DNA from: an uncultured Actinomycetota bacterium
GTDB lineage: Bacteria > Actinomycetota > Actinomycetes > JAFAQI01
Direction: 5' to 3'
DNA length: 64,000 nucleotides
NCBI GenBank assembly: GCA_963770565.1
Contig: CAVYQE010000001.1
Coordinates: forward strand, 960,001-1,024,000
Shown: in pieces, positions 11,442 through 14,596 of the stretch
How the letters are laid out: each line of letters starts with the position of its first letter
Position numbering within the stretch: the stretch's first letter is position 1
The notes under the pieces: generated by a model
Database searches by the model: none
Seen by the model: only the letters and a program-made list of their open reading frames with translations
Told to the model about the DNA's origin: nothing
Translations under genes and position numbers: made by a program

Positions 11442-11463
11442 CGATTCGCGTGTAAGTGCCGTA

Positions 11464-13029
11464 CTATGCTGACGTCGCCTGTCAAGGGTTTGTGTTCTTT
11501 TCGTTCTTGTTCTTCGGTCGTCTCGCGCGATTCCTTCTGGCGGGCGGAAACGGGGTCAAGGTGGAGCGCTCTACTGGACGAACGACTTGACGCCGGCGCC
11601 GCTCACCAGATTCTTGTGCGCTGAGAAGAACGCCAGGTGTTTGTTCGTTAGCGCATGGCGTGTCCTCACCGGTCGTGGGTCTGATTGTGTCGACGGTTGA
11701 CGGTGAGAGCGCGCGGGCGCCAGGCTTACCTTGGCGCGCGGGCGCGTGCTGCGCCGGTCACAAGAGGAGTGATGGGGTGCCCGCGACGGGCATGAGGGTG
11801 CGACCGTTCAATCTAGTACGGGTCGTCCAGCGGGGCTGGCGAACAACGGCATATTGGGAGCTGGTCGCACCGGTCCCTAAGGTCTCGGTGGTGGGCTGGT
11901 AGGCGGACACGGTCACCGTCCCTCGTCGTTGGTTTGCTAGGTGGGAATCTAGATCCAGGCCTGGTCGCCGAGCGCACGTAGCTGGTGGTGACAGCGGCGT
12001 GCGAGTTTACGGGCGACGACAGCGCGCTCGACGCCACCGATGCGATGAGCTAATCGCAGGTAGTAGCCGTTGTCCGGGCTGGTCTTCTTGTGGGCATGCA
12101 GCGCCTCATAAAGCGCCAGCGCAGCACTGGTGGTCCTTGGCGGGTGAGCTCGGGCGGCCACGGTTCTTGCCGTCGGAGTCATAGACGGAGATGTCCAGTA
12201 CGGCGTGACGCACCGCTTGTCTAGACGCGGAGAACGGCGAGTGTCGCTGAGTTCTTCCCAGACCATCGTGGCGAGCAGCGCACCCAACGCGTACTCATGA
12301 GACAGCTCCCGCGGTCCAGGATGACGGCGACCAAACGCGGTGAGCTCCGCGCGCAGCGGCACCAGATCGGCGTCGATCGCCGCGATCATCCGCACCGCGA
12401 CGTCGACAGCCTGCGCGCCGACCGGGGACAGGTCCGGATCGTCAAGCTCGATCTGCACCGGTCTTCTCGCAACAGCTTGCCGTCAGGCTTGGGCACGCCC
12501 TGATGAAAGAAAGTGGCGTGGATCCGTTTCTGCCATGCCTGCTTGCCTGGACCAAATCCAGATACAGCCGCTTCTCCCGGATCTCCAGGACCTGCCGCGA
12601 CGGGATCCACGAGCGGGATTCACCCTTCTCCATAGCTCGAAGCTTGCGTGCATCGATCCGGTCGGTCTTCGCCCGCTGCTTACGGCTTCGTGCACCGGCC
12701 GCCTCGGCCGGATCAGCGACATGCACCTCGGCGCAGCGGCGAGACATTCCTCAGCGATGAACCGCGAACGGCGCAACCCTCCACCACCAGCTCGACCTTC
12801 TTCTCATCGAACTGAGCGAGCCACTTACGGAAACCGACCGGTCCGCCGGGCTGATCCGACCCCGCCCAGACTCCCCGTTATCGCAGTCCACCCAATCGAG
12901 GTGACGGTAGCCGATGAATGTCCAACGCTCCTACGATCGCCATACCTGGACCTCCTCCAGCTCCTGTTAGAGAACTGCACCTAGCGCAGATCCTTCTCTG
13001 TGCGGAGGGGGTCCGGCATATGTCATCTA
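11464..13029 (-). mobile_element. IS110-family element (IS1111-like layout: short left end, long right end)
   Basis: TAG at both junctions, TTGACA near the right end, ~480 nt non-coding 3' region, weak subterminal inverted repeat TATGC. Confidence 0.7.
11949..12943 (-). pseudogene. IS110-family recombinase, multiple frameshifts
   Basis: MAIVGALDIHR, VEG, RAKTDRIDAR, ...VARKLARRCHH; GGAGG RBS. Confidence 0.85.
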
Positions 13030-13254
13030 TTTTTCTTTTGCGACAAGGACATTGACCGAGCAGAACGAAGCCTCTTTGTTGTCAAGACGGTCGTGCAGCC
13101 GGCTGTGGGCATGGCGGTTTGACCCCTTGGCTGATCGCGGTCGAGGGGTTAGTTTCGGTGGGTCCGGGAGTGACTTTTCCGAACAGCCGGCTATCAGGGT
13201 GTGAGGCCGGCGACGCTGGCTAAGAGACGTCCCTGGTTGTCCTCCCGGACCCTT

Positions 13255-14273
13255 CTATGCGCGCTGGTCGGCGCGGAGCTTTTTGTAGACCGCGTCGCTG
13301 ATCTGTCGTTTCAACGCCCGTCGGGCTTCTTTGGGGCTCTTGCCTTCTTCGAGTTTGCGGTCGTAGTAGACCCGGCCTGGGGTGTCTCGTCGGATCTGGG
13401 TGACGGCGGCCATAGTGCAGGGCGTGGTTGAGCTGACGGTTCCCGCGGGTGTTGAGCCGGTGGCGGACCTTCGGTCCGGATGACGCCTCGATCGGCGCGG
13501 TGCCGTTGTAGCTCGCGTAGTGCCCGGCACTCGGGAACCGGGTGATGTCCCCGGAGTGCCCGATCAGCAGCGCGGCGACGATCGGACCAACCCCATAGAC
13601 GTCGGTGACCGACGTGCCGGAGGCGGTGACCGCGGTCGCGGTGCCTGGCTTTGACCTCGGCGATCGCCCGGTCGAGTCGGCGGACGTCGGCGACGAGGTC
13701 CGCGGCGAGCGCTTTGCGTTGCGTCTCGACCGCGGTGACCGGATGCACCCGGCGCAGGAACTCACTCGCCGCGTTGGCAGATAAGCGTTTCTGCACTCCA
13801 CCGGGAACCAACGCCGCGAGCAACGCATGCAGCCGACCGACCGCTTGAGTCCGTAAGGCGGTCAAGTCCTGGTGACGGTCAGCGAGCAACCGCAACACCA
13901 TCACGTGGTTCTCAGCGGTCACCGTCCGCAAGTGCGGATCACGCAGCGCCGCGATCGCCGTCGACAACGCGTCGTTCGGATCGTTCTTCGACCCGCGACC
14001 CGAACCCAGCAGCCGCACCCGCGCCGCTAACACCGGTGGCACGTCCACCACATCCTCACCGGCCGCCACCAGCTGCTGAGCAAGCAGGAACCCCAACCCG
14101 CCAGCAGACTCAATCGCCCAGGTCCGGAACTCATACGGCTGCGCGAACGCGAGCAACCGCTGCAACTGGCGACGATCCGCCCGAACCTTCAGCCGCGCCA
14201 ACTCCTTCTCATCACCATCGACCACCACCGCGGTATGCGAACTCTTATGCGGGTCGATACCGATCAACACCAT
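13255..14273 (-). pseudogene. IS110-family recombinase, two frameshifts (near 13650 and 13410)
   Basis: DEDD motifs GIDPHK, AIESAGG, KNDPNDA; ASSG serine; GNRQLNHALH. Confidence 0.9.
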
Positions 14274-14294
14274 GACCCCTCCTCGGGACATCGG

Positions 14295-14475
14295 GAACGG
14301 TCGCGCGGGCACTCCTGATATGACCGGTGCTCGCCTCTTTCGAGCCACGCCACGACCTAGGAAGCCCGGTGAGCCAGCGCTTCGTTCGAAAGCCAACCGG
14401 CACCGGTGACAGGCACTTCGTGAGCCAGCCCACCAGGCAACCCGGACGCTACGAGCACACGCTCAGCGTCCACAA
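14295..14475 (+). ncRNA. Candidate bridge RNA, antisense to the IS110 recombinase
   Basis: Guide-like CCTGATA and GCTTCGTTC match the target flank and donor end; each followed by a GAGCCA motif; ends approximate. Confidence 0.55.
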
Positions 14476-14596
14476 CCGAGCATCTATCAGGCACCTCGGT
14501 ATAGCTCAGGATTCAAGGTGCTCCTGGCGCGGGACGACCACTAGATGGAGCCGTCAAGGGACAGCAGGGCCATATCGTTGAAGGCAGGTACTGGAC

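Follow-up and report, generated by a model that had tools for sequence, protein, structure and literature searches.

In the bridge RNA that belongs to the insertion sequence (IS) IS621, as set out in PMC11208160, the first internal loop pairs with target DNA and the second with donor DNA, and in each loop the 5′ side carries the top strand of the left half-site together with the core, while the 3′ side is complementary to the core and the right half-site. Handshake bases are placed 3′ of the core complement (PMC11208158), and the IS110 group is described with a short right end (PMC11208160). Here we analysed a 64,000-nt stretch of DNA from an uncultured Actinomycetota bacterium (assembly GCA_963770565.1, contig CAVYQE010000001.1, positions 960,001 to 1,024,000), referred to below as the window, in which positions 13071–14488 of the minus strand hold an element that is very probably an IS110-group insertion sequence working like IS621. 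Elements of the IS1111 group carry the bridge (or seek) RNA in the right end and have long sub-terminal inverted repeats.

With IS621, as it is described in these reports (PMC11208160, PMC11208158), the element shares a recombinase with an N-terminal DEDD (RuvC-like) and a C-terminal Tnp domain, a sense left end of ∼190–215 nt upstream of the gene, the succession of 5′ hairpin, target loop and donor loop, the strand pattern of the guides, a handshake-like base fitting the other DNA, a CT core and palindromic target DNA. It is in these respects a canonical IS621-type element with a sense bridge RNA, and of a known kind. The sites and the predicted bridge RNA are as follows, where LT and RT are the left and right target halves, LD and RD the left and right donor halves, and LTG, RTG, LDG and RDG the corresponding guides.

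13071..14488, minus strand: IS110-family element proper, 1418 bp between both CT cores, placed by guide/DNA matches and homology limits.
14491..14497, minus strand: LT, GAGGTGC, chromosomal DNA outside the element, matched by the LTG at 6/7 positions.
14489..14490, minus strand: left core dinucleotide CT, present within the LTG as CT and within the RDG as AG.
13069..13070, minus strand: right core CT, its position set by the LDG and RTG matches.
13062..13068, minus strand: RT, TCGTTCT, chromosomal DNA, matching the RTG.
14300..14488, minus strand (sense): predicted bridge RNA region, ∼190 nt; continued to the ATG at 14273, the left end measures 215 nt.
14444..14471, minus strand: conserved 5′ stem-loop GGACGCUGAGCGUGUGCUCGUAGCGUCC, with G.U/A-U and U.G/C-G switching at pairs 31–57 and 35–54.
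14411..14419, minus strand: putative LTG with core, GAAGTGC-CT (GAAGTGCCT), on the 5′ side of the first internal loop, covarying with LT.
14396..14407, minus strand: distal hairpin of the target-binding loop, ACCGgugcCGGU, with compensatory changes at pairs 99–118 and 103–115.
14379..14387, minus strand: putative RTG GAACGA, core complement AG and handshake-like C, on the 3′ side of the first loop, complementary to G-CT-TCGTTC.
14333..14340, minus strand: putative LDG AAAGAGG with first core base C (AAAGAGGC), on the 5′ side of the second loop, covarying with the right-end terminus.
14314..14320, minus strand: putative RDG TATC, core complement AG and handshake-like G, on the 3′ side of the second loop, covarying with the first bases of the left end.

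Relatives were drawn from three sources: a DNA match in 17 of 36 genomes of the same family, 10 loci from species-representative genomes, and metagenome contigs, of which the best 80 of 505 confirmed stretches were used. The left-end alignment holds 66 loci with at least 240 nt upstream of the gene (both ends were present in 42), and the right-end alignment holds 59 distinct right ends. Homology among the 66 left ends and 42 complete relatives starts with GA(N)G(T/C)GCCTGAT, at window position 14497, and stops with AAAGAGG(C/A)TTCG(T)T(C), at about 13062–13068, with unrelated DNA beyond. In the same way, copies that are 95–99% identical and stand at other sites, on contigs of 4/4 metagenome runs, align from 13062–13068 to 14494–14497 and then pass into unrelated DNA. 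No other full copy of the element was found in the source genome (4.4 Mb, 11 contigs).

Within these limits, the core placement that fits the IS621 rules exactly puts one CT in GTGC-CT-GAT (14490–14489) and the other in GAGG-CT-TCG (13070–13069). The target then reads GAGGTGC-CT-TCGTTC and the donor AAAGAGG-CT-GATA (also written CAAAGAGGCTGATAGA). The CT core flanks the window copy on both sides and is also found in the LTG, RTG and RDG, with CG in the LDG; at the left junctions of relatives the sequence logo has C in 40/41 and T in 41/41. Judged from these alignments, the conserved sequence beyond each CT core is a target half, which would be alike in relatives because the guides are alike. 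Positions 1–3 of the LT vary among near-identical copies at other sites, and the RT is common to near-identical copies elsewhere, whose flanks diverge beyond 13062.

The strand of the left-end structure was read from consensus folds of the 42 left ends, computed with RNAalifold on both strands, which gave −36.48 in sense versus −5.54 in antisense. The 36 pairs of the sense consensus comprise 1194 Watson-Crick, 225 G.U and 8 A.C cells, and many of them switch between G.U and A-U or G-C among relatives (GU 25 and AU 17 at pair 31–57, UG 20 and CG 19 at pair 35–54); read on the plus strand, the G.U pairs turn into A.C mismatches. Because the helices hold 225 G.U versus 8 A.C cells and the plus-strand consensus fold collapses, the left-end RNA, on this comparative reading, is sense, that is, in the same direction as the recombinase. 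Along the RNA, the order of 5′ hairpin, target loop and donor loop is the IS621 layout.

Guide/DNA agreement was measured over distinct pairs and compared with shuffled pairings (2000 shuffles each), and all four guides covary with their DNA partners above the shuffled pairings. LT plus core agrees with the LTG at 329/396 positions over 44 distinct pairs (shuffle mean 285, reached in 0/2000 shuffles), C plus core plus RD with the RDG at 256/350 (mean 223, 0/2000), LD plus core with the LDG at 200/288 (mean 178, 0/2000), and G plus core plus RT with the RTG at 301/492 over 41 pairs (mean 290, 20/2000), all of these being shuffle counts that overstate significance, as the relatives are not independent. 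Single loci illustrate the pattern. For the LTG and LT, TAACACCCT/ATAACACCCT is found in locus L052, GAATGCCCT in L109 and L112, GCGCC in L034, L035 and L068, and CTGCC in several loci. For the LDG and LD, AAACAGG is found in L047–49, L063, L064, L091 and L109, CAAGAGG in L031 and L033, GAGGA together with GAGGAT in 15 loci, and GAGGGA in L082. For the RDG and RD, 9 loci combine AAGCAGG with CCTGCTT, L067 combines AAGTAGG with CCTACTT, and AATCAGG goes with CCTGATT.

Moreover, an IS110 element on plasmid pRWAY02 of Rhodococcus sp. WAY2 (locus L157, 207060–208500), whose protein is 48% identical, is an independent, retargeted case: it shows this bridge-RNA layout too, and its guides, quite different in sequence, fit its own flanks and ends. 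Its target guides are LTG TTCATACCT with TCCATAC and RTG TAGACGG with CCGTCTA, and its donor guides are LDG AGAGAGGC with CAGAGAGGC and RDG AAGTTGG with CCAACTT. The protein search gave 7 places in this plasmid.

A search for further target guides gave none: sharing of 5-mers between flanks and ends was not above shuffles, column-by-column concordance returned only self-overlaps and the known x2 position, and no right-end column tracks target positions apart from flank self-overlap (best z 3.7, 6262 tests).

Sites lacking the element were found in which the two target halves lie together. An IS-free paralogue of the right flank, at contig C2:758884-758927, reads ...catGAAGTGCTTCGTTCTGCTCGGTCAACG... 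(also given as GAAGTGCTTCGTTCTGCTCGG...), where the left target half is joined to the right half one base short of the reconstructed site; GA(A/G)GTGC adjoins the right flank in the IS-free paralogues. In contigs of runs X1 and X4, the right flank 13030–13064 (no differences) is joined to ...GGCACCT... on the plus strand, which is AGGTGCC in recombinase sense. The exact 15-mer GAAGTGCCTTCGTTC is unoccupied in 2/5 related genomes, and 68 sites have at most 2 mismatches to it, versus 32 for a reversed-pattern control; the source genome holds no exact copy and 7 sites with at most 2 mismatches, versus 0 in the control. Many targets lie inside longer palindromes, and two copies of one element (L047 and L048) agree at 20/22 flanking positions, which suggests a repeated palindromic target.

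Beside the strand of the structure, the four covarying guide/DNA matches and the unoccupied target-like sites, all of them observed here, we propose the following course of events. The 215-nt left end would be transcribed in the recombinase direction and would yield a bridge RNA in which a 5′ hairpin is followed by the target-binding and then the donor-binding loop; insertion would take place at GA(A/G)GTGC-CT-TCGTTC, a site that often lies in the middle of a longer palindrome, with exchange at the CT core. Recombinase binding, a circular intermediate and the chemistry would, by analogy, be those of IS621.

Several points weigh against this reading. The evidence for transcription, for the RNA ends and for the strand is comparative, and single-sequence folds give −84.6 for sense versus −66.7 for antisense, with z of −1.26 and −1.43, neither significant. 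A promoter scan returned no sigma-70-like promoter in the window (0 sites); TTGACA is conserved 9–10 nt from the right end among relatives, and inspection by eye across the junction found no properly spaced −10 for it. The second core position of the LDG is often mismatched (G against T), and about half of the relatives have AT instead of CT as the right core, the left one remaining CT. The RT/RTG signal is the weakest of the four, and LT position 3 agrees with the guide in 10/44 pairs only. The IS-free sites are paralogues, one of them differing from the reconstructed target by that one base, and a search with both flanks in the 36 genomes of the family found no orthologous empty site of the window copy and no syntenic uninterrupted locus. 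Further differences from IS621 are a low protein likeness, mainly in the Tnp domain (E 7.8e-10), a first core base that is free here (CT or AT at the right end), a short RDG (4 + 2 + 1 bases in the window copy), no recognisable junction promoter, and a second, convergent RNA gene in the right end. The right end itself measures 184 nt here, against the short right end in the description of the IS110 group, which is a descriptive trend there and not a mechanistic requirement (PMC11208160).

Three other explanations were weighed. In the first, which we consider improbable, the element would run from (CG)AGGTGCCTGAT... to ...GGCTTCG, and GAAGTGCCTG and GAACGAAGC would be internal copies of its termini, as long sub-terminal repeats or as a donor loop of mirrored polarity. 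Homology among relatives does reach 14497 and 13062–13068, as such boundaries would have it, and the flanks just outside are often short palindromes, small hairpins that would suit well as targets. With the homology limits taken as ends, CGAAGTGCCTG and CGAACGAAGC (recombinase sense) match the termini, with IS621-like polarity only if the RNA were antisense. However, this placement requires that the 5′ end of each guide lie at the core, the reverse of what IS621 has, and it leaves AAAGAGGC and TATCAGG without a role though both covary with the DNA just inside the termini. The outermost three bases vary among near-identical copies, and IS-free paralogues and unoccupied sites join GA(A/G)GTGC directly to (C)TTCGTTC. 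At the outer junctions no left/right dinucleotide is shared above expectation, and the outer boundaries were dropped in part because of this lack of a shared core.

In the second, the left-end structure would act only on translation or stability of the recombinase mRNA, like the 5′ untranslated region (UTR) of ISPpu9, and the guide matches would follow secondarily from the protein's own preferences for targets and ends. The report on ISPpu9 does indicate that IS110-family 5′ UTRs can regulate translation and that this element has extra small RNAs (PMC12288879). Against it, four segments covary base for base with four half-sites and share with IS621 the strand pattern, the order and the inclusion of the core, and the protein of an intact relative passes the model NF033542, 'IS110 family RNA-guided transposase'; we regard this alternative as very unlikely.

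The third is the reading of the preliminary description, in which the element was bounded by the 8-mer ACCGAGCA at 13055–13062 and 14475–14482 and the left end encoded an antisense bridge RNA, with CCTGATA (14314–14320) and CGAGC (14341–14345) in the target loop and GCTTCGTTC (14379–14387) and GAGC (14422–14425) in the donor loop. That the left end encodes a bridge RNA is borne out by the conserved fold and the four covarying guides, and the 8-mers and all four plus-strand motifs are present where they were placed, but the antisense strand is hardly credible: although homology limits taken as ends give GCTTCGTTCG and CAGGCACTTCG on the plus strand with IS621-like polarity toward the joined ends, the conserved helices become A.C there and fold as poorly as reported above, the supposed left target CCTGATAGA is conserved in 66/66 left ends beside unrelated flanks and occurs only once in the genome, CGAGC and GAGC sit within invariant stems, and the sense model covers four covarying guides with one CT core and holds in the Rhodococcus element.

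What misled was the placement of the ends. Homology begins 15 nt outside the left 8-mer, and it ends inside or beside the right one, so that neither marks a boundary. CCTGATA and GCTTCGTTC do mark guide positions, in other roles than those assigned: the former, taken for the left target, is C plus core plus right donor, and 14314–14320 is the complement of the RDG; the latter, taken for the left donor, is G plus core plus right target, and 14379–14387 is complementary to the RTG. Neither CGAGC nor GAGC is a guide; both belong to conserved stems, and the real LTG (GAAGTGCCT, 14419–14411) and LDG (AAAGAGGC, 14340–14333) had been missed. The proposed check of covariation in homologues came out in favour of the guide positions, which covary with flank and end DNA; the layout, said to differ from IS621, matches it in order and strand pattern. 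The empty site that had been predicted, CCTGATAGATGCTCGGTCAATG, has no match in the genome with at most 3 mismatches, and GTGCCTGATAGAT is not a repeated target, because it occurs there once. On the minus strand the 8-mer is TGCTCGGT, positions 7–14 of both right donor and right target in the window copy. A general likeness of RD and RT across 40 elements was not above shuffles, either in a wider test (43/300 shuffles reached the observed value) or for RD(7–24) against RT(6–18) (31/500 did). GCTCGG is also present in the right flanks of L030, L032 and L033.

For the IS621-type element with a sense bridge RNA, the recombinase is encoded as follows.

13255..14273, minus strand: IS110-family recombinase gene, ATG at 14273, read in three frames in the window copy.

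Residues 1–211 of the window copy match PF01548 with 84.5 bits. An intact 338-residue relative (L030) aligns by tblastn with residues 1–213, 208–288 and 274–337 in frames 1, 2 and 3; the gene, on the minus strand, is interrupted twice. Contigs of 4/4 metagenome runs, from the 95–99% identical copies, are without one base at 13643/13644 and one at 13414, and because they omit these bases the two frameshifts are single extra bases in the window copy; they may be real mutations or assembly errors. The intact relative carries PF01548 and PF02371, passes NF033542 with 174.6 bits (cut-off 140), and among transposase chains in the PDB matches IS621 with E 7.8e-10 and ISCro4 with E 1.2e-10.

Downstream of the gene, the right end holds a second structured region, with these features.

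13071..13254, minus strand: right end, 184 nt, stop codon to LD inclusive, conserved in 42 complete relatives.
13085–13071, minus strand: right-end tail, cTTGACA at 13085–13080 followed by LD ACAAAGAGG at 13079–13071, which matches the LDG.
13168..13262, plus strand: predicted second RNA gene, three-stem, convergent with the recombinase and overlapping its 3′ end.
13191–13201, plus strand: loop of the second RNA, CUAUCAGGGUG.
13160–13165, plus strand: TAGTTT, a −10-like hexamer just upstream of the second RNA.

The preliminary description had noted a structured right end (∼190 nt) with CCTGATAG in a hairpin loop and a possible second RNA. The structure is there, in a right end of ∼185 nt, CCTGATAG (13198–13191, minus strand) lying in the loop of a GCCGG/CCGGC hairpin, and the second RNA now has a candidate, an RF02341-like RNA on the plus strand. 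All 59 distinct right ends conserve three nested helices with compensatory changes (pair 35–109, AU 37 and GC 22; pair 59–103, UA 28, GC 20 and GU 8). Some pairs are A.C in sense and G.U on the plus strand, namely 25–121 (CA 34/59, UA 19, CG 3, GC 3) and 73–90 (CA 28/59, CG 29), whereas pairs 41–51 (GU 17) and 59–103 (GU 8) speak against the plus strand and favour sense. A TANNNT stands 4–9 nt upstream of the first helix on the plus strand in 52/58, and Rfam matches in the right end are on the plus strand only. Taken together, the alignment leans to the plus strand for the right-end structure, convergent with the recombinase.

RF02341 (ncrMT1302) scores 30.5 bits in the window, below its gathering score of 45, and 27.3–43.9 bits, on the same strand and all below 45, in 15/20 related loci; it reaches 51.5 bits, above that cut-off, in the Rhodococcus IS110 element. 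RF02467 matches 5/20 related loci below cut-off, and 3/20 have neither model. RF02467 is Ms_IGR-2 of M. smegmatis. Three plasmid relatives were checked for RF02341, and two of them, from Streptomyces and Frondihabitans, had no match at E up to 1. By these scores the window RNA is RF02341-like and not a family member, although its plus strand can be aligned to the model at every one of the 109 positions, sharing helices and long stretches of identity. Among 14 control genomes, a sub-threshold RF02341 match occurs in Thermus thermophilus.

Stand-alone matches were also found: 7 RF02341-like matches in 6/151 Actinomycetota genomes, none above cut-off, which share the core and the TANNNT upstream of it. 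A tblastn search found no relative of the element's recombinase within 1.5 kb of these matches, and 16 neighbouring open reading frames (ORFs), from 6/7 loci, belong to unrelated families, one DDE transposase among them. Because there are stand-alone matches with no nearby recombinase relative, the RNA is not confined to IS110 elements. A guide role for the right-end loop was considered and rejected. The loop resembles the RDG, but AGGGUG is kept in the stand-alone copies too, and C appears in the loop in only 3/9 loci with RD GCT (by eye); as AGGGUG is conserved in the stand-alone copies and the loop ignores RD changes, it is not taken as a guide. From this pattern the most probable role of the right-end RNA is that of a regulator or passenger, not of a guide.

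Two observations concern the surroundings of this RNA. Just past its 3′ end, inside the end of the recombinase ORF, a terminator-like hairpin CGCGCTGGTCGGCGCG is followed by GAGCTTTTTG at 13260–13275 on the plus strand, apparently not conserved in the one relative compared by eye (L030). In the relative L029 (G004:C14), the right end has taken up an additional ∼1.1 kb, placed after the recombinase stop, which interrupts the RNA gene there.

The long right end invites comparison with the IS1111 group, since it is structured and CCTGATAG in its loop resembles the left terminus. It differs from that group in that the guides are in the left end here and the right-end structure fits the opposite strand better. 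For RF02341 the described counterpart is Mcr11, to which ncrMT1302 corresponds, a small RNA (sRNA) of Mycobacterium tuberculosis (PMC4109619) that these reports place between an adenylyl cyclase gene and abmR (PMC4109619, PMC7064933), whereas here the RNA gene is inside a mobile element and overlaps the recombinase 3′ end. No paper linking Mcr11 to IS110 was found at the level of titles and abstracts; supplementary lists in bridge-RNA papers may already include the clade. A long right end with a convergent Mcr11-like RNA is a real departure from the IS110-group pattern.

A precedent by analogy for extra small RNAs on an IS110-family element is ISPpu9 of Pseudomonas putida, for which the published account gives a small-RNA gene that follows the recombinase downstream, more copies of this RNA being present elsewhere in genomes (PMC12288879). 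There, Ssr9 is described in a unit resembling a miniature inverted-repeat transposable element (MITE), flanked by IS-end copies, and pairs with Asr9 (PMC12288879), whereas the RNA here is of another family, convergent, and between stop codon and LD in 59/59 right ends.

Some observations bear on the chromosomal site. A unit of ∼50–70 nt, GAAGTGC...TTCTGCTCGGTCAA.GTCCTTGTCGCAAAAGAAAAATA...GGCACTTC, with inverted ends, recurs upstream of membrane-protein genes. It is located at C2:758884-758934 of the source genome and at window 13028–13068 plus 14491–14497, and in the window IS110-family elements occupy both of its ends. Another IS110-family element, different from the first, at 11455–13030 (minus strand), is separated by ∼40 nt from the first element's right target half and has three genome copies, 93–96% identical (the others at C6:184158-185769 and C2:891453-893083). 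An open frame of 380 residues, with IS110-like motifs, is present in its C6 copy, and the window copy is split into several ORFs. Copies of this second element adjoin GA(G/A)GTGCC on one side, the heptamer used as LT by the first element.

As regards method, a boundary error of 7–15 nt can make a canonical guide RNA look antisense, and counts of G.U versus A.C over homologues decide the strand without RNA data. For the family, the element extends the IS621 paradigm by a well-resolved actinobacterial clade whose guides can be read, whose 15-nt target is palindromic, in which retargeted variants occur naturally, and which has a cultured representative in Rhodococcus; this is useful for mining bridge recombinases and not surprising. 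That the convergent RF02341-like RNA is a working part of this IS110 clade, with Mcr11 and the stand-alone relatives related to or derived from an IS110-carried RNA, seems unlikely on the present comparison; if true, it could be a regulator of recombinase output, of bridge-RNA output or of excision. The right-end RNA connects mobile elements with a family that is known solely as a regulatory sRNA of mycobacteria, and it is the only part of possible wider specialist interest.

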